A DNA stretch of 12,006 bases from a virus (Duplodnaviria; Heunggongvirae; Uroviricota; Caudoviricetes): IMG/VR virus record IMGVR_UViG_2609460346_000011, positions 1 to 12,006 of that record; one strand, given 5' to 3'. Numbering within the stretch: position 1 is the first letter of the stretch; each line of letters begins with the position of its first letter. Under the pieces are notes generated by a model that made no database searches, was not told the DNA's origin, and saw only the letters and a list, made by a program, of their open reading frames with translations. The position numbers and the translations under genes are program-made. Shown here one piece after another: positions 1 through 12,006 of this stretch.

Positions 1-1263
1 ATGAAACTGACTGATGTAGCTGTACGTAACGCCAAACCAGATAAGGACAACAACAAAATTAAAAAACTTCGAGACGGGAAAGGGCTGTATCTCTATGTTC
101 ACCCCAACGGCTCAAAATACTGGCGCTTTCGCAAGGTTATCAACGGTAAAGAAACGACCCGAGCTTTAGGCATTTATCCTGCCGTAACACTTGCACAGGC
201 AAGGAACGCTCGTGATGAATATCTGGCGAGCCTGGCTAAAGGCATTGACCCACTGCACACGCCAAAACCTCAAATAGTGCTTTTTGAAGACGTTGCCAGA
301 GAGTGGCACAGCCGGAAAAAGGGCTGGAGCGAATTACACGCGCAAAAAGTCTTAAAAGACCTGGAAAACCACATCTTCCCCATTCTAGGTAAAAGGCCAA
401 TTAACGAGATCACAACCATGGATCTACTGATTCCTTTACGCAAAATGGAAGATAAAGGAGTGCTTGAGACAGCATCACGTAACAAGCAGCGAATGAACGC
501 CATTATGCGCTACGCTGTACAGAATGGAATGATTAAATACAATCCAGCGCAGGAGCTAAACGGTGCAATCGAAACTAATAAAACCAAACATCGCCCTGCT
601 CTTCCCCTTGAGCGATTACCTGAATTACTTGGCAAAATAAATGATTACCACTATAAGATGAATGGACGGTTATTAACGCAATTTGCACTAAAATTAAATT
701 TATTAATTTTTATTCGCTCAAGTGAATTGCGTTTTGCTCGTTGGAATGAAATTGATTTTGATAAATCAATGTGGGTAATACCAGCAGAACGCGAAAAAAT
801 AGAAGGCGTAAAATATTCATATCGTGGAACGAAAATGGGAACCCCTCACGCCATCCCTTTACCCACTCAGGCCATGCAGCTTCTTGACGATATAAGAAAT
901 ATATCCGGTGATGAAGTGTTTATTTTCCCCGGCGACCATTACCAGATAAAACCAATGAGCGAAAACACCATTAACAAGGCATTACGCCACATGGGATACG
1001 ACACAAAAAAAGATATTTGTGGTCACGGATTCAGGGCCATGGCCTGTTCGGCGCTGACAGAGTCAGGCAGGTGGACAAGAGAAGCCGTTGAGCTTCAGAT
1101 GAGTCACAGGGAAAGAGGCAGTGTCCGGGCTGCATACGTTCACAGAGCTGAACATATGCAGGAACGCCGCCGAATGTTGCAATGGTGGGCTGATTATCTC
1201 GACACCTGCAAGACGGCATATATTGCCCCCTATGATTTTAAATGGGCTAACGAAACAGACTGA
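1..1263 (+). CDS. int: Tyrosine site-specific integrase, P4/CP4-57 (IntA-like) family, 420 aa
   Basis: Full-length ORF with TGA stop at 1261-1263. The N-terminus (LTD..VRNAKP...GKGLYLYVHPNGSKYWRFR...YPAVTLAQAR) matches the P4-type integrase N-terminal domain as I recall it. The C-terminus carries recombinase-like motifs (HGFRAM, RAAYVHRAE). The ORF starts on base 1, so the upstream attachment site and RBS are not visible. Confidence 0.9.
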   Translation: MKLTDVAVRNAKPDKDNNKIKKLRDGKGLYLYVHPNGSKYWRFRKVINGKETTRALGIYPAVTLAQARNARDEYLASLAKGIDPLHTPKPQIVLFEDVAREWHSRKKGWSELHAQKVLKDLENHIFPILGKRPINEITTMDLLIPLRKMEDKGVLETASRNKQRMNAIMRYAVQNGMIKYNPAQELNGAIETNKTKHRPALPLERLPELLGKINDYHYKMNGRLLTQFALKLNLLIFIRSSELRFARWNEIDFDKSMWVIPAEREKIEGVKYSYRGTKMGTPHAIPLPTQAMQLLDDIRNISGDEVFIFPGDHYQIKPMSENTINKALRHMGYDTKKDICGHGFRAMACSALTESGRWTREAVELQMSHRERGSVRAAYVHRAEHMQERRRMLQWWADYLDTCKTAYIAPYDFKWANETD

Positions 1264-1863
1264 ATCAACTCAACAAACTAAACTACCCCAAGCGGCTGAA
1301 TTAAACTCAAGGCGTGGACAATATGTGGACACGCCGATTTTTTTATCTTTTAAAATCAATAGAATAAGACACTACTAAAAGCACCTAGTGATTTTTTAGC
1401 CTCAAAACCAAGTATATCTATTTGATTTTTAATGTGTTTTTAATTAATGACCAGTTCTTTTGATAAAAACTAGAAAATCAAACTGTTTTATCGATATTGT
1501 TTTTTGATATGCATCACATTTTCAACTCTTTTTTTGTTTTCAGAATCCACTATTCCAGCGTTCGCAAGCATTGCATCCCCCCGGAACGGGCTTTCCTGGT
1601 GCCTGAAAGGGTAAGTCAGCAAACCTTTCTGGCACTAACTTGTTATTCTTTGTCGCTTTCTGGCGGTTTAAAGTGGCTCTAAATGTATATTTCACGCATG
1701 GAACAAATCTAACTGTCCATGTCAACCCCATCTGAAAATCGACCTGATTTACAAATCCGCTTTTCGTTGTTTATGATTTTTCTCGTCCCGCAGACGACCG
1801 CGAGATCTTACATGCTCCCACTGTGAGCTAACGTAAAGTGTTCAGCATATACAGGAGGCCAAT

Positions 1864-2085
1864 ATGTCAGCATACTCACAGACCAGCGAAAGGCGGATTC
1901 AAAAATTAATAAGACTCCCCAGAGTCATTGAAATCACAGGGAGATCAAGAGCTCGAATTTACGAAGATATAAAATCTGATATCTTCCCCAAACCAATAAA
2001 AATAGGCCCTCGTGCGGTTGCATGGGTTGAAGAAGAAATTATCGACTGGATAGAAGAAAGAAAACAACAACGTTTTCAGGCTTAA
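1864..2085 (+). CDS. alpA: AlpA-family phage transcriptional regulator / excisionase-like protein, 73 aa
   Basis: Strong SD (caggagg) 6 nt upstream of the ATG. The pattern IRLPRVIEITGRSRARIYEDI...FPKPIKIGPRAVAWVEEEIIDWIEER fits the AlpA/Vis helix-turn-helix signature (TG.SR..IY ... FPKP.K.G.R.V.W...EI..W). Confidence 0.85.
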   Translation: MSAYSQTSERRIQKLIRLPRVIEITGRSRARIYEDIKSDIFPKPIKIGPRAVAWVEEEIIDWIEERKQQRFQA

Positions 2086-2701
2086 TTATTTTCATTTTAT
2101 AGTCAGCATGGCGCGATATGCGCCTAAACACTTCATACAATAAGAAACATCACTTAACCAAAGATGCATTCATGGTTTAAAAGATGCTCTACCCTTGTTA
2201 AGGAAACCGGAGTAAACAGATATAACAAAATAAAAGAAAGTGGACTATCAGAGGGATATTTTCATCTGTACGTCACACGTAAGAAATATATTTCAAGGAG
2301 CTAAGTTTAAAATCAACATTTATTTACAGAGTATAAAATTGAGTTATTCCGGTTACATTAACCGGATTGGGTGAACTGTTATGATAAATACAAGTAATGG
2401 CGACGTGGGTATATTCTCCACGAGGCATAAACAAACAAACGCTTTAAACATCATAACCGGATGTCCGGGAATACAGCATTATCCTGCTGACTGGAGCGGG
2501 CACATTGCTACATGTGAGGGAAGGAGGCCGGGTACTGGCAGCAGAGTCAAAAAAAGAAGCTCGCTAAAGCTAGCGAGCCAACCAGTCAGTAGTACGCGAT
2601 GGATCTGACATTAAGAATAATAGGCAGAAATAATTATGGCTTTTTTACTCTTAAAAATCAATCACTCAGCGCAAGTGAGCAAAAATAATTTGCAATATTG
2701 C

Positions 2702-2731
2702 TTGACTCGCTTTTTTGTCATGGCGTATCGT
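2702..2731 (+). promoter_or_regulatory. Putative sigma70-like promoter (TTGACT, ~18 bp spacer, TATCGT) reading into the repeat region
   Basis: TTGACT at 2702-2707 and a weak -10 candidate TATCGT at 2726-2731, with AT-rich DNA upstream. Pattern match only. Confidence 0.25.
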
Positions 2732-2756
2732 TTGCCCGCACCTCATAAAGCGGGTG

Positions 2757-2941
2757 CCGGGTTTAGCAGCCTGAACAATCAAGCGGGTAGCCGCTATATT
2801 TCCGTAATGCGGTTTTTTTGTGCCCGTAATTCCACCCTACCCCGTATTATGGCGGGGCGGAATGGGGGGGCCTTTGCGCTCGCTGGTTCCTTGATTGCCA
2901 GTCTGCTAACCCTGTTACGTCCCGCCACCATGTTTAGCAGC
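2757..2941 (+). promoter_or_regulatory. Non-coding region with direct 10-mer repeats (GTTTAGCAGC at 2761-2770 and 2932-2941) and an internal partly complementary segment (2897-2914); candidate RNA-RNA regulatory module
   Basis: The exact 10-mer occurs twice 171 bp apart. The reverse complement of 2897-2914 (CAGGGTTAGCAGACTGGC) aligns with the first repeat context (CCGGGTTTAGCAGCCTG) at about 14 of 16 positions with one bulge. The 173-aa ORF called across this region translates to low-complexity sequence that does not look protein-like. Confidence 0.35.
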
Positions 2942-2983
2942 GTGCTGGCGAGACTCCGTAAACTTAATCAAGGAGCCGCCAAA

Positions 2984-3157
2984 ATGGCTATATCAACACG
3001 CCCTGATTTTATCTGGCGCTTTATGCAGTGCCACGGTAAAAATATTCGCCTTCATACCGTTACCGCTGCCAGTGAGCGCGAAGCGCGCGCCATGCTTCCG
3101 GCATCCCGTCTGGTCTTTGTTGCCCGTATCCGTGTCCGGGAGGCGTGCCATGTTTAA
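2984..3157 (+). CDS. Hypothetical small protein, 57 aa
   Basis: Internal ATG of the 2636..3157 ORF, with SD AGGAG at 2971-2975 eight nt upstream. Its stop overlaps the next gene's start. No family recognised. Confidence 0.45.
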   Translation: MAISTRPDFIWRFMQCHGKNIRLHTVTAASEREARAMLPASRLVFVARIRVREACHV

Positions 3158-3332
3158 GCTCCTTATCACCCTGATTAACTACCAGAACGGCGACGTTCGC
3201 CAGATGATTCATTCCTGGGAATATCCGACTTATGACGATGCATGGCGTGATGCCTGTCGTATGGCATATTCCCGCAATGACAAACAGGGGCGATTAACCC
3301 ACAAATGCGCAGTAAAAATCATGGAGGGGTAA
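3150..3332 (+). CDS. Hypothetical small protein, 60 aa
   Basis: ATG at 3150 preceded by GGGAGG (3135-3140) and overlapping the stop of the upstream ORF (translational coupling). The longer 3072 start lacks an RBS and overlaps the upstream gene. No family recognised. Confidence 0.4.
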   Translation: MFKLLITLINYQNGDVRQMIHSWEYPTYDDAWRDACRMAYSRNDKQGRLTHKCAVKIMEG

Positions 3333-3334
3333 CG

Positions 3335-3523
3335 ATGTACGAGATTCATATTAAATTGCGTAATGTGGTAACAGGAGAGGAAGAAAACTTCTACACGATA
3401 CGTAAATATAAATCAAAAGGAAAAGCGGCAAGGGACGCTATCAGGTATACGGAAGAAATTGCGCCGAAATATCAATTGCCAGAAGAAGAATTCACAGCAT
3501 CAGTGGTAAAGGTGAAGAAATGA
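3335..3523 (+). CDS. Hypothetical small protein, 62 aa (Lys/Glu-rich)
   Basis: ATG at 3335 with SD GGAGGGG five nt upstream; stop TGA overlaps the next start (ATGA at 3520-3523). No family recognised. Confidence 0.45.
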   Translation: MYEIHIKLRNVVTGEEENFYTIRKYKSKGKAARDAIRYTEEIAPKYQLPEEEFTASVVKVKK

Positions 3524-3738
3524 AAAGCCGTTCAATATCCCGTAAAAATAATGGCAGTGGTGAAAAACGTTTCTTTGTGTTGGGTTATGCCGTTAATAAA
3601 CGTGGGTTAACCAAACATGCACATGCAACGGTATACGGAACAGGACCGGGCGAAGCCATACGCCGCGCAGCCGAAGGGCTGGAAGAGCTGGGAATGACAC
3701 ATTTCAGGGCATTGAAGGTTACGCAGCTTTCCGCCTGA
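3520..3738 (+). CDS. Hypothetical small protein, 72 aa
   Basis: Start overlaps the upstream stop (ATGA) and a purine-rich stretch lies upstream. No family recognised. By position it could correspond to the small ORFs preceding the primase gene in P4-like elements. Confidence 0.45.
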   Translation: MKSRSISRKNNGSGEKRFFVLGYAVNKRGLTKHAHATVYGTGPGEAIRRAAEGLEELGMTHFRALKVTQLSA

Positions 3739-3805
3739 TTCCTTAATTACCAACTGATAACTGAATTAAATTTATATTTCGATCTTAACGGGTCGGGGAG
3801 TTTTT

Positions 3806-4105
3806 ATGTCTAAACGTCAGAATAGCGAAATTTTTTTAGATAGAGAATATGCTGGCTTTTTTACAGAAAGTGCAAAGGAAGATCTCACAGATGTGATTAA
3901 TCTCGTCAGTTTAATATCTGTGGTCTTTGGCGATAAAAATGGTAGAGCATCAGCAGAAATTATAAATGAAGAAATTGTATCTCTGTCTAACATTATTTAT
4001 AGGGAATTACAATCAATAAAATCTGGTATGCATTCATCCGGCGGAATTTTTTCATGGCATAGCGCCGAAACCGCCGGGATTGCCAAAGCAATAAGCAACG
4101 AGTAA
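3806..4105 (+). CDS. Hypothetical protein, 99 aa, encoded in a markedly AT-rich segment
   Basis: SD GGGGAG six nt upstream of the ATG. Codon usage and GC content are clearly lower than in the flanking genes. A perfect hairpin follows immediately downstream. Confidence 0.5.
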   Translation: MSKRQNSEIFLDREYAGFFTESAKEDLTDVINLVSLISVVFGDKNGRASAEIINEEIVSLSNIIYRELQSIKSGMHSSGGIFSWHSAETAGIAKAISNE

Positions 4106-4115
4106 TTAATAAAAA

Positions 4116-4140
4116 CCCCACTGCAAAAGGTGCAGTGGGG
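4116..4140 (+). terminator. Perfect 10-bp stem hairpin (CCCCACTGCA / AAAGG / TGCAGTGGGG), intrinsic terminator or RBS-sequestering structure
   Basis: Perfect inverted repeat seen directly, preceded by an A-tract and followed by a U-rich stretch. The right arm overlaps the purine-rich SD (GGTGGAG, 4138-4144) of the primase gene. Confidence 0.5.
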
Positions 4141-4153
4141 TGGAGTTTTATAT

Positions 4154-6823
4154 ATGAAATCTGACATCAGAAAAGAGATTATTAACCGTCTTATCCGTGA
4201 TTACAACTTCAAAGAAGAAAATAACTACCTCCGATATGGTGTTTGTCCACAATGTGGAAAGAAAGAGCTGTTTACCAGCCTTGAGAAGCCGTACATCGTA
4301 CACTGCGGGCGTGAAAATAAATGCGGTACAGACCTGCTAACCAAAGAACTTTACCCGGATGTGTTTTCATCATGGTCAGATCGCTATATCAGCACGAAAG
4401 ACGAGCCATATGCAGCGGCGGCAGCTTATCTTCAGGAGGCGCGCAATATTGCTGTGGAGCCACTGAAAGGGGTATTCACTCAGGAGCGATACCAGGACAA
4501 GGAAAGCGGCGAACAGGCCGCTACCGTGCGTTTTACACTGGCTGACGGCGTGTGGTGGGAGCGCATCATAGACCGACCGGAACGCTTCGAACGGAAGGCG
4601 AATTTTTCCGGCAGCTACAAGGGGCTGTGGTGGGCTTATCCGGGAACAGATTTAAGCAGGGCCAAGGAAATCTGGATTTGTGAGGGTGTCTTTGATGCAA
4701 TCAGCCTTAACCAGAATGGCATTGCGGCCGTTTCTGTCATGTCTGCCGTGAATTATCCTGATGAGGCGCTGGAAGAACTGGCAAAGCAGTGCGGAGATAA
4801 TCCCCGTCCGGTTATTGTGTGGGCGCTGGATAACGGGCGTGCAGGTGAGCGTTACGCGAAAAAACATGCAGAACGCAGCGCCGAAGACGGCTGGAGAACG
4901 GCGGCGGCGTTACCGGGTAAAAACAGCAATAAACGCGACTGGAATGATTTACACACCGCCGGAAAGCTGCGTAGCCATGATGTAAAAAGATACCGTTATT
5001 ACGGTGATTTATTACTGGCGAAATCCCCAAGAGATAAGGCGCTGATAATATTTTCCTTTTGTGAGCGGAAGGAATTTCATTTTACCTTTGATAACCGTGT
5101 TTTCTGGTTCAAACTGGACATTGAGCGCTATATGAAGGCTGTTGAGCGTGCCAAGAATGAGCGAAATGTTGATGAGGATGAAGCGCGCAAAATTGCACTT
5201 AAGGAATCCGGTACTGTAAAAGAAATCGCAAACTGTAACCCAGCGCCGCTTTATTACATTCGAAATAATGATACGGATGAAGCCTGGTATTACTTCCGTG
5301 TTACGTTCCCGGATGGTGCTACGGTGAAAAACACCTTTACATCAGGACAATTAACATCCGCATCTGAATTTAAAAAACGCCTGTTGCATGTGGCAAAAGG
5401 CGGTATTTATACCGGAACGACTGCGCACCTTGATGCATTAATAAAAAATGACCTTCCCGCAATAAAAAATGTTATCGGTCAGGATTTTATCGGATACAAC
5501 AAAGAGATTGGCGCGTGGCTGTTTAATGATGTCGCGGTTTGTAATGGTAAAACCTACGAAATCAATGAAGAGGATTATTTTGAAATTGATGGCATAAACG
5601 CAAAACCATTGAATAAAAAACCAATATTGCAGATTAACTATAAAAAACCGGATAAATTTACAATATCCTGGGTGGAAGATCTCTGGCTGGCGTTTGGTGA
5701 AAAGGGAATTATTACCCTGGCCTTCTGGCTGGGTTCGTTGTTCAGCGAACAAATCAGGCAGAAAAACACGTCTTACCCTTTTCTTGAGATTACCGGAGAG
5801 CCTGGAACGGGTAAAACAACGCTGATTGATTTTTGTTGGCGTTTGTGTGGCCGTGACAACTATGAAGGTGTTGATCCAACCAAAGGATCGGAATCAGGCT
5901 GGAAGCGAACTTTTGGACAGGTCGCCGGATTACCTGTTGTTCTGATTGAAGCAGACCGGGGAGACAATGCGCAAAAAAGAGGCGCGTTTGACTTCGATAA
6001 CCTGAAAAGCCTCTATAACGGTGGTGGTATTGGGGTACGTGGCGTTAAAACCAATGATAACGCCACATATGACCCCGTTTTTAAGGGGGCTGTCGTGATT
6101 GCGCAAAATGCCACGGTAAACGCCTCGTCGGCAATTATTGAGCGCCTGGTACGTGTATACACCGATAAAAAACGCCACTCACCAGATAGCCGACTGGCAG
6201 CAAAACGGCTGGAGCTTTACCCCGTTGAGCAGGTATCAGGTTTTATCCATCGGGCAGTAAGTCAGGAACGGACGATTATGGAGACGTTTATGGCACTCTC
6301 GGATTCTGAGACAACCCGCCTTTATAGTTGCGAAAATATTCGTCATCAGCGTATTGCCAAAAATCACGCGCAACTTATCGCGCTGGTCAGGGCGCTGAAA
6401 TGCGTTATTGATATCCCGGATGAATGGCTTGATGCCACATGTCTGGAACTGGAGCGAATGGCAGAGGAACAGGCTAAAGCGGTAATGGATGACTTGCCGG
6501 AAGTGATGGCGTTCTGGGAGACGTTCGACTATCTGGACGGCATCACAGCATACGGCGTAAATCATTTTGGCAAGGGACGGCAGAATGAGTTTGCCATCAG
6601 TATCCCGCAACTTGAGCAGGTTGCCGCCGTTCACCACGTGAAGATCCAAACCAATCCCGAAATGATAAAGCTTCTCAAGGCTGGCCGTTCTCGATCGCTG
6701 ATTGGATACAAGCCCGTCCGTAGCGAGGTATCCAGACAGGCGAACGCCGGGAGGGGAATAGCCGAGGCCAGAGAGAAGGAGGTATTGAAATGCTGGATAT
6801 TTAGTAACAAGGAGGGGGCTTAA
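4154..6823 (+). CDS. DNA primase/helicase-type replication initiator (zinc ribbon + TOPRIM/EGxxD primase + P-loop NTPase), P4 alpha-like in architecture, 889 aa
   Basis: Start taken at the ATG at 4154 (MKSDIRK) rather than the upstream in-frame ATG inside the hairpin. N-terminal Cys cluster CPQCGKK...HCGRENKCG; EGVFDA primase-type motif followed by an acidic DNGRAGE segment; Walker A GEPGTGKTT near residue 550. Confidence 0.85.
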   Translation: MKSDIRKEIINRLIRDYNFKEENNYLRYGVCPQCGKKELFTSLEKPYIVHCGRENKCGTDLLTKELYPDVFSSWSDRYISTKDEPYAAAAAYLQEARNIAVEPLKGVFTQERYQDKESGEQAATVRFTLADGVWWERIIDRPERFERKANFSGSYKGLWWAYPGTDLSRAKEIWICEGVFDAISLNQNGIAAVSVMSAVNYPDEALEELAKQCGDNPRPVIVWALDNGRAGERYAKKHAERSAEDGWRTAAALPGKNSNKRDWNDLHTAGKLRSHDVKRYRYYGDLLLAKSPRDKALIIFSFCERKEFHFTFDNRVFWFKLDIERYMKAVERAKNERNVDEDEARKIALKESGTVKEIANCNPAPLYYIRNNDTDEAWYYFRVTFPDGATVKNTFTSGQLTSASEFKKRLLHVAKGGIYTGTTAHLDALIKNDLPAIKNVIGQDFIGYNKEIGAWLFNDVAVCNGKTYEINEEDYFEIDGINAKPLNKKPILQINYKKPDKFTISWVEDLWLAFGEKGIITLAFWLGSLFSEQIRQKNTSYPFLEITGEPGTGKTTLIDFCWRLCGRDNYEGVDPTKGSESGWKRTFGQVAGLPVVLIEADRGDNAQKRGAFDFDNLKSLYNGGGIGVRGVKTNDNATYDPVFKGAVVIAQNATVNASSAIIERLVRVYTDKKRHSPDSRLAAKRLELYPVEQVSGFIHRAVSQERTIMETFMALSDSETTRLYSCENIRHQRIAKNHAQLIALVRALKCVIDIPDEWLDATCLELERMAEEQAKAVMDDLPEVMAFWETFDYLDGITAYGVNHFGKGRQNEFAISIPQLEQVAAVHHVKIQTNPEMIKLLKAGRSRSLIGYKPVRSEVSRQANAGRGIAEAREKEVLKCWIFSNKEGA

Positions 6824-6825
6824 GT

Positions 6826-7827
6826 ATGTCGATCAGAAAGATGGATGATGGGCGATGGCTGCTCGATATCAGGCCCCAAGGGGCGTACGGCAAACGGATA
6901 CGTAAAATTTTTGTCAGGAAAGGGAGTGCGGAGGTCTTCAAAGAACATATTTTACAGAATTTCCATAACAACCCATGGCTGGCTAAACCTGCTGATCGAC
7001 GGAGATTATCAGAGCTGCTTGATATATGGTGGATGCTTGATGGCCGTAACCAGGCTTACGGTGATACCTACAGGATTCGGATGGAGAAAGTGATTCGTGA
7101 AATGGGAGATCCGCGTGCCAGCCAGATGACGCAAAAATTTATGCTTGAGTATCGGTCAGAGAAATTACAGGCCGGCTTAATGCCATCCAGCATTAATCGT
7201 GACTTGTGCGTTCTGTCTACCATGTTCACGGTGCTGATTGAAGCTGAGGTCTTTCACAACCCGAACCCTGTACGCGGTATACGCAAGCTAAAAATTCAGA
7301 ATACAGAGATGGCCTTTCTTTCTGATGATGAGATTGAGCGGCTTCTTGAGCGACTGGAGGGGGATGCGCGTCGTGTTGCCATTCTGTGTCTTTCTACTGG
7401 TGCCCGATGGAGTGAAGCATCGGAACTACGTGGAGAGCACATCATTGGCAACCGGGTGACGTTCTTTAACACCAAAAACGGAAAATCCCGTTCGGTTCCT
7501 GTGGCTGATTCGGTCGTGCCGCTGATTAAGACCCACCGGACAGGGGTGTTGTATCAGGTTGATTATCTGAAGTTCCGGGAGATCCTTCAGGAGGTGAAGC
7601 CGGATTTACCGAAGGGGCAGGCTACGCATGTCATGCGTCATACATTTGCCACACACTTTATGATGAATGGCGGAAATATTGTTACGTTACAACGAATCCT
7701 GGGGCATGCCACGATTCAACAGACAATGACGTACGCGCATTTTTCTCCCGACTATCTGGCGGATGCCATGAGGTTTAACCCGATAGCTAACATGGCATTC
7801 ACTGAACAAGAAGAGCCAGCAGAGTAA
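6826..7827 (+). CDS. int: Tyrosine integrase, P2 Int-like family, 333 aa
   Basis: Near end-to-end resemblance to the P2 integrase as I recall it (MSIRKMDDGRWLLDIRPQG..GKRIRK...AILCLSTGARWSEA...GQATHVMRHTFATHFMMNGGNIVTLQRILGH...TYAHF). Catalytic Arg, HxxR box and Tyr are present. The ATG lies 2 nt after the primase stop, with the SD (AAGGAGGGGG) inside the primase 3' end. Confidence 0.85.
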   Translation: MSIRKMDDGRWLLDIRPQGAYGKRIRKIFVRKGSAEVFKEHILQNFHNNPWLAKPADRRRLSELLDIWWMLDGRNQAYGDTYRIRMEKVIREMGDPRASQMTQKFMLEYRSEKLQAGLMPSSINRDLCVLSTMFTVLIEAEVFHNPNPVRGIRKLKIQNTEMAFLSDDEIERLLERLEGDARRVAILCLSTGARWSEASELRGEHIIGNRVTFFNTKNGKSRSVPVADSVVPLIKTHRTGVLYQVDYLKFREILQEVKPDLPKGQATHVMRHTFATHFMMNGGNIVTLQRILGHATIQQTMTYAHFSPDYLADAMRFNPIANMAFTEQEEPAE

Positions 7828-7857
7828 CCCGCAGAACGCTACATTCACAGCAAAAGA

Positions 7858-7882
7858 GGTCAGTTTTCCACTGGCCTTTTTT
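7858..7882 (+). terminator. Rho-independent terminator after the P2-type integrase
   Basis: Stem GGUCAG/CUGGCC (one G-U pair) with a 7-nt loop, followed by a run of six T. Confidence 0.6.
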
Positions 7883-8073
7883 GTTGGCCAAAGCCAACGG
7901 TAACAGCAATGCGATGGAGGCCATATTGCAGTGGTGTCGCCATCAATTTTTTTTGCTCTCCCCCCTGGTTATCAGAAAGAGTCAAATAATGGCGAGATAC
8001 ATTTCAATAACAGAGAGTTAATGATAGAGATACAGAATAAGTGAGTTTGATTAACATTTTAAAGGGTCGCGCT

Positions 8074-8397
8074 AAAATCCGGGGGGGGGTGCGGAAACGG
8101 GTTACAAAGGTTACAAACAGAAAAATATATTATATATCAATACATTATAATACATTTAAAAGGTTACAAACGGGTTACAACAGGGTTACATGTAACCTTT
8201 ATGTAGTGGTTACTGTTGGTTACAGGTTAAATTTATAATTAATTGATAATTAATCTGTTTTTGAGAGCTGCAACCTCGTGTAACCTTCTGTAACCTCAAA
8301 AAGGTTACAAGAAATATGTTTTAAAATCATATGACTATAGTGTGTTTTAGGGGGTTGTAACCTTTGTAACCCGTTTCCGCACCCCCTACCGGATTTT
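8074..8397. repeat. Iteron cluster: about 12 copies of GGTTACA/TGTAACC in both orientations around AT-rich DNA, bounded by 43-bp inverted repeats (8074-8116 and 8355-8397, 41/43 identity); putative replication origin
   Basis: Counted directly: forward copies at 8100, 8109, 8162, 8173, 8184, 8219, 8303; reverse copies at 8191, 8279, 8289, 8356, 8365. Includes the palindrome GGTTACATGTAACC at 8184-8197. The interior is AT-rich and there is no convincing coding potential. Confidence 0.6.
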
Positions 8398-8614
8398 GAG
8401 GCAGAGCCCCAAAACAACTGGCCTGACCTCTAACAAAAATGCAACATTAATCATTGATTTTTTGGGGGCTGTCAGTCACGGGGAGTTGCCCTGTTGTTTG
8501 GCAGAAAAATGAAGTATGTACATGCGCGGCGGGGATGGTAAAAAACGTAATACACGCGGCGCAGTTGCCATAAAAAATCTCTCAAAAGCACTCTTTTTGA
8601 CGCTATTGTTCATC

Positions 8615-8644
8615 TGCACAAAAGTGCACAAATTTGCACAATTT
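8615..8644. repeat. Three direct TGCACAA(A/T) repeats phased at exactly 10 bp (8615, 8625, 8635), with a fourth copy at 8707
   Basis: Direct reading of TGCACAAAAG TGCACAAATT TGCACAATTT. Helical-turn phasing suggests a protein binding array or bent DNA. Confidence 0.4.
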
Positions 8645-9004
8645 TTTAGAGTAACTTTTTGCCCATCCGGCCCAGTACTGGCGCGCCCGGAGGGCGATTT
8701 CGTGCGTGCACAAAAAACGGTGAGTTTTTCGCGCGCAGGTGACGGGGGAACAGCACGCGTTTCAGGGGGTAAATTACATTTTCGCTAAAGGCTGCGGGAA
8801 TGCCCCGACCGGGTTAGTTTTATCGCCAGCCAGAGCCGTTCTTACGGCAAGAGAGAACTGATACGGGGAATGTGACGAGTGAGCATGGGAACGGCGCGCC
8901 CGTGCGTAATACGCGGCGACTGCTGCGGGTTTATTTGATACAGCCAGAGGGGGGCGGCAGAAGATATAATAGGTTAAATTTCACACCAGTAAGAGGAGCG
9001 TGAT

Positions 9005-9187
9005 ATGTCTTTCCCTTGCCCGGCCTGTGGCGCTTCAGCCCGCACCCGTGGTCGTTCGTTGGAAGAACACGAACAAAACATCTACAGAACGTATTACCAG
9101 TGCAATAATATTGAGTGTGGGGCTTGTTTTTGTACGCTTGAGTCGTTTGTACGCATTACTAAGCGCAGGAAGTCGAAAACTTCATAG
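9005..9187 (+). CDS. ogr: Ogr/Delta-family zinc-finger late-gene transcriptional activator, 60 aa
   Basis: SD AAGAGGAG upstream. CPAC...(x)...YQCNNIECGACFCTLESF matches the Ogr/Delta C-x2-C / C-x4-C zinc-finger signature and the FxTxES motif of P2 Ogr as recalled. Confidence 0.85.
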   Translation: MSFPCPACGASARTRGRSLEEHEQNIYRTYYQCNNIECGACFCTLESFVRITKRRKSKTS

Positions 9188-9237
9188 TGATTTGTATAAC
9201 ACAGCCAGCGAGTGTGACCGGCTGCGTTATTTCTGTA

Positions 9238-9471
9238 TTACGTCGTGTGGTTCTGGTCATTTGCCCAGGCCCACACATCCCCCGCTACATTGCGCCCGTT
9301 GCAGTCTTCTTCCTGCGTTTCCCCGGCCTTAATTCCCTGACTGATAAACATTCTGACGCACTGGGAGTAGTTCATCTCTCTGTCCTGACATATCTGATTT
9401 ATTTTATGGTCGATTTCGTGCGGGATACGAATACAGCGTAATACGCATCGCATTTTCTTTTGTTTTTTCAT
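9238..9471 (-). CDS. Small hypothetical protein (77 aa) with a ribbon-helix-helix-like N-terminus; possible DNA-binding regulator
   Basis: Minus-strand ATG at 9471 preceded by AGGGAGG at seven nt spacing. The N-terminus MKKQKKMRCVLRCIRIPHEIDHKINQICQDREMNYSQCVRMFI has a strand-helix-helix pattern reminiscent of Arc/CopG-type proteins. The overlapping + strand ORFs look like junk. Family assignment is tentative. Confidence 0.4.
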   Translation of the reverse strand: MKKQKKMRCVLRCIRIPHEIDHKINQICQDREMNYSQCVRMFISQGIKAGETQEEDCNGRNVAGDVWAWANDQNHTT

Positions 9472-9626
9472 AGTGTTGCCTCCCTGATTGTTTATGCCGG
9501 GATTTAACACCCGCGATACAAGAAAGCGTAATACAACAGTATTGTGAGCGTATTACGAGAACAAAATCGGCTGGAATGTATTACGCAATATGGAAAAAAT
9601 CGGCGTAAGTAAAAAAATGTATTACA
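9436..9626. promoter_or_regulatory. Divergent intergenic/promoter region with five copies of GCGTAATAC/GTATTACGC in both orientations
   Basis: Motif at 9436, 9526, 9549 (inverted), 9577 (inverted) and 9618 (partial). Related longer copies (CGTAATACRCGCGG) occur at about 8549, 8899 and inside the capsid gene at about 11177. Confidence 0.35.
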
Positions 9627-9636
9627 GGAGCAAATA

Positions 9637-10347
9637 ATGGATATAACTCAGGCAAGCGCCGAACATCAGGTATGTAAAGCACAGTTTGATACAGCCATGG
9701 CAAAACTCAGTGAACAGGAATCATTAATCACCAATCTGGAAGCAACTATCGAACAGACGAAAGGGGAGCTGGAATCTCTCGATCGTGACTGGCAGAACTC
9801 AATCCTGTCTGCGCTGGGCGTAAAAACGGAAGCCTCCGCGAAATTATCCATTCAGGCGGGTGTGGCGCGAGAAAATCTTGAGCGTCTGCGGGTGCTGCAT
9901 GATGAGGCGCGCATCAGGCTACTGGAGTGTCGTTATAACGCGGCAGAGGCTGGTTGTGCTTACGAAAGCATTGATAATAAGTTGCGGGCAGAGATATTTG
10001 CAAAAGCACTTCCCGAACTGATTAACGAGCTGACCCCTGCTCTGTTATTGATTCGTGGTTTATGTGAGCTGCTTGGCCAGCCGCTGTATAACGCAGAAAA
10101 GAAAATATGCGAAACACTGAAAGCGACAGATACTGCTGAAAGTGTCGGGATGATTCGCGGCCGGATTAACGATACCGAAAGCGACACCTCCAGCCCGCTG
10201 CGTTATTGCCCGGAGAAACTCCCGGATTCGGTAAGCCGCGCAATCAGGAACGCCCCTTCACCTGTACAATGGAGCGCGGCGCGACAGAATCCAGAAAAAA
10301 TGCGCGACCTTGCGGAGGGCAGAGAACTCTGCCGGGGGTGGCAGTAA
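9637..10347 (+). CDS. Coiled-coil alpha-helical protein, 236 aa; putative capsid scaffold or size-determination-like (Sid/Psu/GpO-like) protein
   Basis: SD AGGAG seven nt upstream. The sequence is rich in Ala/Leu/Glu heptad-like segments. It sits immediately upstream of, and is translationally coupled to, the capsid gene (TAATG overlap at 10345-10349). The coding call is reasonably safe; the function is inferred from position and composition only. Confidence 0.5.
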   Translation: MDITQASAEHQVCKAQFDTAMAKLSEQESLITNLEATIEQTKGELESLDRDWQNSILSALGVKTEASAKLSIQAGVARENLERLRVLHDEARIRLLECRYNAAEAGCAYESIDNKLRAEIFAKALPELINELTPALLLIRGLCELLGQPLYNAEKKICETLKATDTAESVGMIRGRINDTESDTSSPLRYCPEKLPDSVSRAIRNAPSPVQWSAARQNPEKMRDLAEGRELCRGWQ

Positions 10348-11618
10348 TGGGCGGTCTGAATACTCCACATTTGCACGGCGCTGATATAGTGAGCCGACTC
10401 AGGGGATTAATGTCCCGGAATCGCCTGAAAGCAAACACAGCAAGCATAAGCGATGAGACGCGTCGCGCGCTGGACAATGAATATCAAAAACTGGAGCGTG
10501 AGCTTGAGCTTCACACCCTGCATACTGCAAGCGGTGGGGGTAATAACGACGGCATTGAGCGTTATAATTGCACTGCTGATTCTGTTGTATCACAACGAAA
10601 TCAACAGGCTCAGATGGTTTTCAATTGCGCTATCGAGTCGATAACCGGAAAGCATCCGAAGGATTTGCACTTTTCTGGTGACACTGCGCGCTATTCGTCA
10701 GAAGTTGAACCCGTTCCCCGCCAGAGTGCAACGCTTGCCAGTGGATGGCAGGCAAATTTCCTTGCTGAAATAACTCCCGTGCCTGTTACGGATATATCAG
10801 GTCGGGTTGTGCTGGTAGACGCTTCGGGGCCGTTGGCACGTACATCGCCACCTCACGAGCGCCGTTCGCCACTACAGGCGCATTCACTGGTTTCAAGGGG
10901 CTACCGCTGCGAGCAGGTTAATTTTGATTTTGCGCTGAACTACGACAATGTTGATGCTCACACATCCGCAAACGGTCTTGAAGGAAGCGCACGGGCTGCT
11001 TTTGAACGCCGGAAATGGCTGGATTTGATTCAGATTGGTTTTAACGGTACGCACTATGCCGATACATCAGATCCCGGAACATATCCGGGGCGTGATGATT
11101 GCGGCGTGGGCTGGTTGCAGAAGTTTCGAAATGAAGCGGCGGGAAGGGTTATCAGCGGCCTTTCTGTTTCATCACCGAAAAGTAATACACGCGGTACACA
11201 CCATACGATAGATGCGCTCGTTCTGGATGCCTGGCAATCCATGATTGATGAACAGTGGCAGGAAGGCATTGTGGCCGTATGCAGTCACAATACGCTGGTC
11301 CGTAAGCAATGGCCTTTGATAAACCGTCTTGATCCATCGCAGATGAATCAGGAAATTTTGCTTAACGAGGAAATCATTAAAAATCCCGTTCTGGGGAATC
11401 TCCCGGCTGTGACCGTTCCATTTTTCCCGGACAATGCTGTATTGATCACACCTCTTGCCAATCTGTGTCTGTACTGGCAGCGTGGTTCCGTTCGTGGCCT
11501 GGTAAAAAACGAGCCTCAGTATAATCGCCTCGCGTTCTATGAGTCCTGTAACCTTGACTGGGTGGTGGGGCAATATGAGGCAGGGTGCTTACTGGATGGG
11601 ATTGACTGGAAAGAATAG
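10347..11618 (+). CDS. Major capsid protein, P2 GpN-like family, 424 aa from the ATG at 10347 (alternative internal start at 10614)
   Basis: Extended motif agreement with P2 GpN as I recall it: CEQVNFDF, GFNGTHYADTSD, GVGWLQKFRNEAAGRV, IDALVLDA, GNLPAVTVPFFPDNAVLITPLANL, YESCNLDWVVGQYEAGCLLDGI. SD-like GGGGGTGG lies upstream of the 10347 ATG. About 89 residues precede the region that aligns with the GpN N-terminus. Confidence 0.8.
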   Translation: MGGLNTPHLHGADIVSRLRGLMSRNRLKANTASISDETRRALDNEYQKLERELELHTLHTASGGGNNDGIERYNCTADSVVSQRNQQAQMVFNCAIESITGKHPKDLHFSGDTARYSSEVEPVPRQSATLASGWQANFLAEITPVPVTDISGRVVLVDASGPLARTSPPHERRSPLQAHSLVSRGYRCEQVNFDFALNYDNVDAHTSANGLEGSARAAFERRKWLDLIQIGFNGTHYADTSDPGTYPGRDDCGVGWLQKFRNEAAGRVISGLSVSSPKSNTRGTHHTIDALVLDAWQSMIDEQWQEGIVAVCSHNTLVRKQWPLINRLDPSQMNQEILLNEEIIKNPVLGNLPAVTVPFFPDNAVLITPLANLCLYWQRGSVRGLVKNEPQYNRLAFYESCNLDWVVGQYEAGCLLDGIDWKE

Positions 11619-11640
11619 CAAGGAAATTTCCGGTAACGTT

Positions 11641-11658
11641 GAGGGCTTCTCAGCCCTC
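11641..11658. terminator. Hairpin GAGGGC/TTCTCA/GCCCTC between convergent genes; probable bidirectional terminator
   Basis: Perfect 6-bp GC-rich stem followed by CTTTTACTT on the + strand. It lies between the capsid stop (11616-11618) and the toxin stop (11662-11664). Confidence 0.5.
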
Positions 11659-11661
11659 CTT

Positions 11662-12006
11662 TTACTTAAGCAGATGCTCTCCACCAATCAGGGTTATGAC
11701 TCTTTCAAGCACATCATTAAATACCCCATCTTCTGCCTCTGTGATTAAGCGCGCTTTCCGCTGACGCCAGTCAAGGGTTTGAATGAGTGTGGTTGCTACC
11801 ACGCTGGGGGCGTCCAGATTTGTTACCGGAACTTCTGTGGGAGCATTTCGTATGCTCGTACTTATGGAGCAGCATATGACAAGCCCGGTGAGTCGGTTAT
11901 ATTGCTCATGGGATAGTATGAGTGCCGGGCGATACTTTCCGATCTCTTTTCCTTTCTGCGGCTCAAAATCCAGCCAGCAAATATCACCACGCTTAGGTAC
12001 AAACAT
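11662..12006 (-). CDS. Type II toxin, MazF/PemK/Kid-family endoribonuclease, 114 aa
   Basis: RGDICWLDFEPQKGKEIGKYRPALILS...LTGLVICCSISTS...VATTLIQTLDWRQRKARL follows the MazF/PemK pattern (RGDI..V.FDP..G.E..G.RPALVLS). The start codon sits on the last three bases of the window, so the upstream partner gene and promoter are not visible. Confidence 0.8.
   Translation of the reverse strand: MFVPKRGDICWLDFEPQKGKEIGKYRPALILSHEQYNRLTGLVICCSISTSIRNAPTEVPVTNLDAPSVVATTLIQTLDWRQRKARLITEAEDGVFNDVLERVITLIGGEHLLK

Follow-up and report, generated by a model that had tools for sequence, protein, structure and literature searches.

Whether a mobile element that combines a P4-type integrase, AlpA and a primase with a P2-type integrase, an Ogr-like activator and a P2 GpN-like capsid gene is a satellite carrying its own capsid gene, or a P2-like remnant joined to a P4-like island, is the question raised by a 12,006-nucleotide stretch of tailed-phage DNA (IMG/VR record IMGVR_UViG_2609460346_000011). 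This stretch, positions 1-12,006 and referred to here as the window, begins at the integrase ATG of a larger island, and the genes that an original prediction had listed (integrase, AlpA, primase, P2-type integrase, Ogr and GpN-like capsid) are all present at the expected places. The window appears to represent almost the whole of a complete, mobile satellite of ~12.7 kb that parasitizes P88-like (Peduoviridae, P2-family) temperate phages, a reading to which a probability of roughly 0.65 is assigned. Together with its relatives, the element makes up a coherent family of satellites whose helpers are P88-like, and it does not represent a broken prophage. It forms a discrete unit at argW with integration, regulation and RNA immunity of the P4 type, its own primase and iteron origin, a P88-type cos, an Ogr activator, and an operon encoding a Sid-fold protein and a capsid homolog.

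Boundaries, structural genes and cos region

Escherichia coli TOE17 carries an island that is 99.9% identical to the window and is located between tRNA-Arg (argW, after yfdC) and dsdC. A direct repeat, CTGCAGGG(G)ACACCAT, constitutes the att sequence (positions 14806-14822 and 27478-27493 of the TOE17 locus L001), with one copy at the 3' end of the tRNA and the other ~480 bp beyond the window end, and the att-bounded element measures ~12,672 bp (12.7 kb). Only attL (~180 bp upstream), mazE and attR (~480 bp downstream) lie outside the window. Since dsdC directly follows mazE and host genes flank the island in TOE17, there is no adjacent P2-like prophage; a complete neighboring prophage of this kind, which the original prediction had named as the finding that would overturn it, is replaced here by host genes that follow immediately. 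The extension beyond the window that had been proposed yielded attL and attR and revealed no terminase or tail genes in the element; cos lies inside the window. Portal, protease/scaffold, GpO, lysis and gpA-type replication genes are likewise absent from the 12.7 kb. From the head, tail, lysis and replication set of a P2-like prophage, only int, ogr and capsid homologs were found, and fragments of the neighboring P2 genes (O, M, L, Q, P) were not found in the element. Its length is 0.354 of that of the P88 genome, and the corresponding P4/P2 ratio is 0.346.

The major capsid homolog (10347..11618, plus strand; 423 aa) is a member of the P2 (GpN-like) family (PF05125, E=1e-71), and the best fold match of its model in Foldseek is GpN in the P4 procapsid (7jw1, E=1e-27). 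The protein shares less than 60% identity with every deposited phage, with ~35% identity to phage GpN proteins including that of P2 and 35-38% to those of P88-like phages. It falls into a clade of its own (41-96% identity, 393-497 aa, all members with a variable N-terminal extension) that spans Escherichia, Salmonella, Klebsiella, Erwinia, Pectobacterium and Symbiopectobacterium; in a large protein collection, phage GpN proteins are set apart from this clade by a clear score gap. The N-terminal extension of the capsid homolog (~85-118 aa) is predicted to consist of a helical hairpin (residues 11-60) and a disordered linker. Both the extension and the Sid-like protein were considered as relatives of GpO, a proposal that was rejected in the absence of significant similarity to P88 GpO; for this reason, the notion that the modeled hairpin may be a fused scaffolding domain is only speculation. 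In several prophage-size IMG/VR contigs (L088, L103, L189-L191 and L197), P2-family capsids align to the satellite protein at 34% identity over residues 12-421, a near full-length alignment, so some phage GpN proteins may also possess an N-terminal extension.

The gene preceding the capsid gene (9637..10347, plus strand) encodes a 236-aa Sid-like protein with the fold of P4 Sid, which is predicted to be an external scaffold that determines capsid size. Its correspondence to Sid, the size-determination protein of P4-like satellites, is apparent from the fold, and plain sequence comparison gave no Sid detection. The two genes are translationally coupled, the sid-like gene ending at position 10347 and the capsid gene starting at position 10347. 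A premise that satellites of this type lack sid fails for this island, given the Sid-fold gene in front of the capsid gene. No Psu-family match was obtained in Pfam, PHROGs or NCBIfam, the profile of the sid-like family gave a probability of 0.5% against Psu with no sequence similarity, and the element contains one Sid/Psu-fold gene only.

The cos region (8614..8780, plus strand) is of the P88-like helper type and was located by conservation and phage homology, with 77-81% identity to a non-coding stretch beside the phage portal gene. Identity is ~81% to P88, vB_EcoM-569R5, PhiR44_2 and Citrobacter Shae_phiSM and 77% to 500465-2; in P88 and 500465-2, the matching stretch lies directly beside the portal gene, which is the canonical position of a P2-like cos. 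In the alignment, TGCACAA-AGTGCACAAATTTGCACAATTTTTT and GCGCGCAGGTGACGGGGGAACAGC-CGCGTTTCAGGGGGTAAA are preserved with hardly any change. The island cos is also colinear with that of P4, at a score reached by 4 of 300 shuffles. The predicted cohesive-end 19-mer, GGTGACGGGGGAACAGCAC (8738-8756), agrees with the cohesive end of P2/P4 in 14 of its 19 positions, and a search of the window for the P2/P4 19-mer with up to three mismatches returned no match. The five differing positions suggest that the helper is likely P88-like. The cos expected of a P4-like satellite is present in a P88 rather than a P2/P4 version. The region is conserved in all family members, and in strain P13-6 the island and a resident P88-like prophage share a near-identical cos core. 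A RefSeq open reading frame (ORF) annotated as a hypothetical protein (8516-8788) overlaps cos; it is probably not a gene, because its ratio of nonsynonymous to synonymous substitution rates (dN/dS) is ~1.

Family conservation, mobility and helper link

The same gene order recurs in about 10 genera, including Escherichia, Klebsiella, Enterobacter, Kluyvera, Erwinia, Izhakiella and Apirhabdus. Wherever the context could be seen, it comprises the primase, usually the second integrase (int2), the origin, cos, ogr, a small reverse-strand gene, the sid-like gene, the capsid gene and variable cargo. The small reverse-strand gene is ribbon-helix-helix (RHH)-like wherever similarity is detectable, which is not the case in the divergent E. 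coli lineage L007/L008, where ogr is also reversed. In comparisons among E. coli variants, the capsid gene had dN/dS values of 0.09-0.26 and the sid-like gene values of 0.15-0.29, and those of int2 and the primase gene lay at 0.06-0.08 and 0.12-0.16, respectively; this purifying selection indicates a maintained design rather than debris. Between the two origins that had been proposed for the locus, a hybrid satellite with its own capsid gene is the one favored by the discrete att-bounded unit, the recurrent gene order, the purifying selection and the helper-type cos.

At an identity of at least 95%, the sid-like/capsid module is found in 57 of 5426 complete E. coli genomes (~1%) at several chromosomal positions, and the carriers derive from humans, pigs, cattle and poultry. 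In ETEC6333 (L137, 2072-4790), the same core is accompanied by a different integrase, a 352-aa hypothetical protein and a helix-turn-helix regulator between gcd and hpt; the integration module can thus be exchanged. Of the 5426 genomes, 1115 (~20%) possess a terminase gene of the P88-like type, namely about 41 of the 57 carriers (~72%, TOE17 included) versus 1074 of the 5369 others (odds ratio 10, Fisher p=7e-17), statistics that ignore kinship among carriers, many of which are related pig enterotoxigenic E. coli (ETEC) strains.

A metagenome contig, QAKE01000006.1 (12,723 bp), contains a circularly permuted member of the family in the order ogr, RHH gene, sid-like gene, capsid gene, int, primase gene, int2, origin and cos. 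Its first 507 nt are repeated exactly at the end (1-507 and 12208-12714), giving a unit of 12,207 bp, and the contig represents an excised circle or a concatemer. Within the cos 19-mer the terminal repeat breaks off, and the next 9 nt, AGATGTGTA, equal the start of the Nextera mosaic end; the contig possibly has a physical end at cos. This contig was binned into a metagenome-assembled genome labeled 'Bacillota', and is actually a satellite of enterobacterial type.

Replication, integration and regulatory modules

The primase-helicase (4154..6823, plus strand) consists of a toprim domain and a DUF927-type C-terminal part and is of the phiCTX/RSY1 type (phrog_1139, 1015 bits). Its best tblastn matches, at 42-51% identity, are in the P2-like phages phiCTX, RSY1, Smp131 and ESSI2_ev239, and no P4 match was obtained by tblastn at E<=1e-5. 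In BLASTP comparison with P4 alpha, similarity is limited to the toprim (E=5e-4) and Walker A patches, from which the enzyme is judged not to be an alpha ortholog. The integrase-proximal layout of P4 that had been claimed for this island consequently holds for the integrase, AlpA and the immunity RNAs and fails for the primase, which tblastn places with phiCTX rather than with alpha. A 10.3-kb contig labeled 'Bacteriophage sp.' (MT836451) with a similar primase was also considered and was rejected as an unrelated high-GC phage fragment.

The replication origin (8074..8397) is composed of GGTTACA iterons in both orientations separated by AT-rich spacers, with 43-nt inverted repeats at its edges (arms at 8074-8116 and 8355-8397). 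Of 15 copies of GGTTACA in the window, 13 lie within 8100-8371, and 1.4 copies would be expected for the whole window. Equivalent but different iterons are found directly 3' of the primase gene in a Klebsiella relative and in an Erwinia relative lacking int2. Because the iterons follow the primase even without int2, they are assigned to the primase-helicase as origin iterons and not to an integrase as its sites. An alternative assignment of the iteron block as an att or recombination site of int2 was rejected, given their occurrence in the member lacking int2 and the colinearity of variants.

The second tyrosine recombinase, Int2 (6826..7827, plus strand; Int_N and Phage_integrase domains), is of the helper (P2-family) type and shares 87% amino-acid identity with the integrase of vB_EcoM-569R5-type Peduoviridae and 55% with P2 Int; the Erwinia member lacks it. 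The gene is conserved and is a mosaic in which the 5' 126 nt and the 3' ~70 nt are satellite-specific and the center is swapped between island variants, with flanks that stay ~90% identical. Amino-acid identity of Int2 is 54% in the variants L014 (7842-8846) and L138, versus 98%, between islands that are otherwise ~90-97% identical. Nucleotides 127-932 of int2 show ~92% identity to a widespread prophage int, of which TOE17 carries a second such copy. By these identity patterns, the center of int2 is repeatedly exchanged with helper-prophage alleles. No helper-like attP was found beside int2, and a search for an att core common to the island and the 569R5-type prophage junction gave chance 11-mers only, the similarity ending inside int2.

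The primary integrase (1..1263, plus strand) is a tyrosine recombinase with the Pfam domains Arm-DNA-bind_3, Phage_int_M and Phage_integrase. It shares 53% identity with P4 Int over 417 aa (E=8e-156), which identifies it as P4-type, and has a dN/dS of 0.03-0.15; its target is the 3' end of the tRNA-Arg gene argW. In pig ETEC strains (L012 and L013, 13654-14035), the island stands in tandem with a CPS-53-type intS prophage remnant at argW, so that two elements occupy one att site. The AlpA-family regulator or excisionase (1864..2085, plus strand; PF05930, E=5.5e-17) corresponds to the AlpA of P4-like satellites and shows no nonsynonymous change among the compared variants.

Two small RNAs follow on the plus strand, an isrK-like RNA (2738..2819; Rfam RF01394, 52.1 bits, above the gathering score) and a C4/CI-type antisense immunity RNA (2845..2932; Rfam RF01695, E=1e-11, 67.3 bits where the gathering score is 45). 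Both are located inside an annotated 'Icd-like protein' ORF (2636..3157, plus strand; NCBIfam phage_ICD_like, E=2e-14, with repressor-type PHROG matches), and the immunity of the element is probably RNA-based in the manner of P4 and P1. Relatives possess a Phage_ASH domain at the position of this ORF. Upstream of the primase gene lie four small plus-strand ORFs from the RefSeq annotation (3150-3332, 3335-3523, 3520-3738 and 3806-4105) with no Pfam or PHROG matches and dN/dS values of 0.14-0.9; their place in the Erwinia relative is taken by P4 epsilon-like (Derepression) and DUF5375 genes. For Ash/epsilon, the small ORFs of the window gave no Pfam match, and the Phage_ASH and Derepression domains are present there in relatives.

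The late region opens with ogr (9005..9187, plus strand), which encodes a single-domain zinc-finger late-gene activator of the Ogr/Delta type (60 aa; PF04606, E=3e-11) and is conserved in all relatives, thereby providing the Ogr-like counterpart of Delta. Its dN/dS reaches 0.36 in one comparison involving 7 substitutions. Divergent from the late operon is the gene of a 77-aa probable RHH regulator (9238..9471, minus strand) with weak CopG/RHH and RelB matches. Its position is kept in most relatives, and in L007/L008 it is occupied by a 59-aa gene without detected similarity. Upstream of the sid-like gene lies a dyad, CGTAATAC-N15-GTATTACG (9527..9557), a candidate for an operator or an activator site. 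Seven copies of the octamer GTATTACG are present, all within 8546-9585 around ogr, the RHH gene and the sid-like promoter, against an expectation of 0.29; the motif is confined to this lineage of E. coli islands, and no such clusters were seen in the partial helper-phage loci or the Klebsiella/Erwinia relatives examined. These copies are likely a set of operators on which either the 77-aa RHH protein or this variant of Ogr acts. No sigma-70 consensus promoter was found upstream of position 9637. In the Klebsiella and Erwinia members, the stretch CCCTGTT...TGGCC...CTTACAACAAAAGC precedes the sid-like gene (L002 9100-9150 and L005 9100-9150, compared with L135 7805-7840); it resembles the late-promoter region between the portal and scaffold genes of P88 and is missing from the E. 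coli lineage of the window.

A terminator-like hairpin downstream of the capsid gene (11641..11658, plus strand) ends the late operon. The GC-rich hairpin at 11638-11658 lies between the convergent capsid and mazF genes and is a possible bidirectional terminator. The mazF toxin gene (11662..12006, minus strand; PF02452, E=9e-24), with mazE just outside the window, is cargo in a variable slot beside attR, which in relatives holds GmrSD with type I restriction-modification, uracil-DNA glycosylase (UDG) or hok. With toxin-antitoxin and restriction cargo in this slot, the elements probably move defense genes between enteric bacteria. PADLOC assigned no defense family to the sid-like gene, the capsid gene or int2. 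Several of the features described above extend the original prediction, namely cos (8614-8780), the coupled Sid-fold gene, the iteron origin (8074-8397) and the immunity RNAs (2738-2932).

Proposed life cycle and comparison with known systems

By analogy with P4 and with satellite capsid homologs such as SaPIbov5 Ccm and that of PmCI172, a life cycle can be proposed for the element. Upon induction of, or infection by, a helper, the satellite would be excised by Int and AlpA, as in P4, and would replicate from its own origin, and the Ogr-type activators of helper and satellite would turn on each other's late genes. The satellite capsid homolog, in a role assigned by the same analogy, would then form small (T=4-size) heads together with the Sid-like cage on helper portal and GpO. 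After cutting the copied cos, helper terminase would fill each head with one 12.7-kb genome, and transfer would be completed by the tails and lysis functions of the helper. Helper-dependent packaging and transfer are indicated indirectly by the cos mimicry, the association with helper prophages, the circular form and the several integration sites.

Several observations weigh against this picture of a mobile satellite with a working capsid protein. The capsid homolog of EcCICFT073 is dispensable for interference (PMC6092414) and, as cited in a further study, also for helper-assisted transfer (PMC10111431), so that the capsid gene of the island may be equally unneeded for transfer. No Ogr box of the form TGT-N12-ACA occurs in the window, and this lineage has a promoter region unlike that of the Klebsiella and Erwinia members. 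The capsid model has a predicted local distance difference test (pLDDT) score of 73, which corresponds to moderate confidence. The cargo of some relatives would exceed a T=4 head, the kinship of carriers bears on the association with P88-like terminase, and a search for packaged copies in IMG/VR gave nothing beyond prophage-style calls from isolate genomes and a single metagenome contig of 47 kb.

A bolder version of the satellite reading, put forward tentatively, regards the lineage as an intermediate between P4 and the phage-inducible chromosomal islands that form capsids (cf-PICIs). The head would be built wholly of the satellite's own GpN-family capsid protein within its own Sid-like cage, the hairpin would be a fused delta-like scaffold, and the helper would provide portal, protease, terminase and tails. 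In this scheme int2 would act on helper att sites, and gene conversion would for this reason keep it matched to the helper integrase. If the head is indeed made of the satellite's own capsid protein, the satellite would be insensitive to sir-type mutations of the helper capsid. Another possibility, which we consider rather unlikely, is that this satellite of P88-like phages travels in helper-made heads and that its Sid-like/capsid pair serves mainly in interference or defense through mis-sizing, poisoning or acting as a decoy. [quoted passage not shown] Satellites also often bring anti-phage cargo, of which mazEF in the island and GmrSD and restriction-modification in relatives are examples. 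However, the pair is translationally coupled, kept with cos and ogr in every member and under purifying selection, the genome has 0.35 of the helper's length, a size that packaging into small heads would predict, and PADLOC yielded no match to a defense family; both roles are compatible with one another.

Loss of mobility, with the locus persisting as a domesticated island that retains phage-like genes and is no longer mobilized by helpers, appears very improbable. The presence of the island in only 1% of E. coli genomes would fit such a state, but copies at least 95% identical reside at several chromosomal sites in varied hosts with exchanged integrase modules, cos remains matched to the cos of helpers resident in the same genome, a metagenome contains a relative in excised circular or concatemeric form, and the core genes are under purifying selection. 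Hardly any credence is given to the second origin that had been proposed, in which a P2-like prophage remnant (int, ogr and capsid) became fused with, or inserted into, a P4-like island as an accident of decay. In accordance with this origin, Int2 is 87% identical to the integrase of a P2-like phage, int2 is followed by a convergent, reverse-strand ogr in the L007 lineage, which is the int-attP-ogr arrangement of P2, and this primase type also occurs in P2-like phages. Against this origin stand the lack of an adjacent prophage and of any O, M, L, Q, P, portal, terminase or tail fragments, a capsid only ~35% identical to that of any phage in a separate clade with an N-terminal extension, and the same order in many genera with intact P2-like genes (dN/dS 0.06-0.36). 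It is possible that the family originated anciently from a P2-like phage, which would concern the origin of the family and would not make the present element a remnant.

P4 is the textbook satellite that reshapes a borrowed capsid, and cf-PICIs represent the opposite extreme in making whole heads. The satellite family described here brings two such parts only, a Sid-like cage and a shell protein of its own, and therefore offers a direct test of the passage from borrowing to owning structural genes in satellites. It also tests whether a private capsid protein shields against helper resistance mutations. A likely helper group can be named, the P88-like prophages of ~20% of complete E. coli genomes, and to our knowledge no satellite of P88-like phages has been described.

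The element resembles P4 in its P4-type integrase (53% identity) at a tRNA gene, AlpA/Vis, C4/CI-type RNA immunity, own primase replicon with an iteron origin, Ogr/Delta activator, Sid-fold protein, copy of the helper cos and a genome ~0.35 of the helper's. Unlike P4, it lacks Psu, its primase-helicase is of the phiCTX-type family, and it carries an extra helper-type integrase and a GpN-family capsid gene coupled to the sid-like gene. Its Ogr is a single 60-aa domain, whereas P4 Delta has 166 aa, and its gene order differs in that the hijack module is far from int and cos lies between the origin and ogr. The core genes of P4-like satellites are int, alpA, ash/epsilon, alpha, sid, delta and psu (PMC10085698). 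Strict membership in this group fails because of the missing Psu, the missing alpha ortholog, the different gene order and the satellite's own capsid gene; with fewer than seven core genes confirmed, the family may fall outside the current seven-gene definition.

In Gram-negative PICIs of lambdoid helpers, a satellite capsid homolog and an extra helper-type integrase are already documented (PMC10111431, PMC6092414, PMC10085698), the extra integrases being related to helper integrases and located in the late zone (PMC10111431). The element shares with these PICIs, of which EcCICFT073 and SatelliteFinder PICI Type A are examples, the succession int, alpA, pri and ori, a subsequent late zone that includes a capsid homolog, a helper-type cos and a size within 10-20 kb (PMC6092414, PMC10111431, PMC10085698). 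Gram-negative PICIs possess int, alpA, pri-rep, a capsid-morphogenesis gene and terS and lack tail and lysis genes. As in this group, int, alpA and pri are accompanied by an origin downstream of pri; the capsid-morphogenesis gene may have its counterpart in the capsid homolog, which is of the P2 family. However, the PICI capsid homologs are of the lambda E/HK97 type and accompany redirection of packaging by TerS or Rpp, whereas the island possesses a P2-family capsid, Ogr and a Sid-fold protein and uses a different helper family; no terS or rpp-like gene was found among the ORFs searched with Pfam, PHROGs and NCBIfam. SaPIbov5 Ccm and PmCI172 similarly involve a satellite-encoded homolog of the helper capsid, proposed or shown to give satellite-sized heads (PMC6092414). 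Their helpers differ, being staphylococcal cos siphophages and a Mu-like phage, respectively, and no Sid-like partner is described for them.

Like cf-PICIs, the element encodes its own major capsid protein. The gene set of these islands further includes portal, protease, head-tail connectors and terminase, and tails are all that they obtain from the helper (PMC10085698), whereas the element has the capsid and Sid-like proteins only; none of the cf-PICI portal, protease, connector, adaptor and terminase set is present in its 12.7 kb, and it is not a cf-PICI. With P88-like phages (Xuanwuvirus and relatives, Peduoviridae), it shares ~81% cos identity, 87% identity of Int2 in some members, Ogr and the P2-family capsid fold, and it differs from them in lacking portal, terminase, GpO, tail, lysis and gpA-type replication genes and in a capsid that is 35-38% identical. 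The view that such an arrangement is uncommon stands insofar as no published P2-family capsid gene was found in a P4-like or PICI-like satellite, within an incomplete coverage of the literature that leaves room for a prior description, and it is tempered by the occurrence of the island in ~1% of complete E. coli genomes and by the documented PICI pattern. Satellite capsid homologs and extra helper-type integrases are hence already known, and what appears to be new is that a satellite of P88-like phages couples a capsid gene of the P2 family to a Sid-fold gene.

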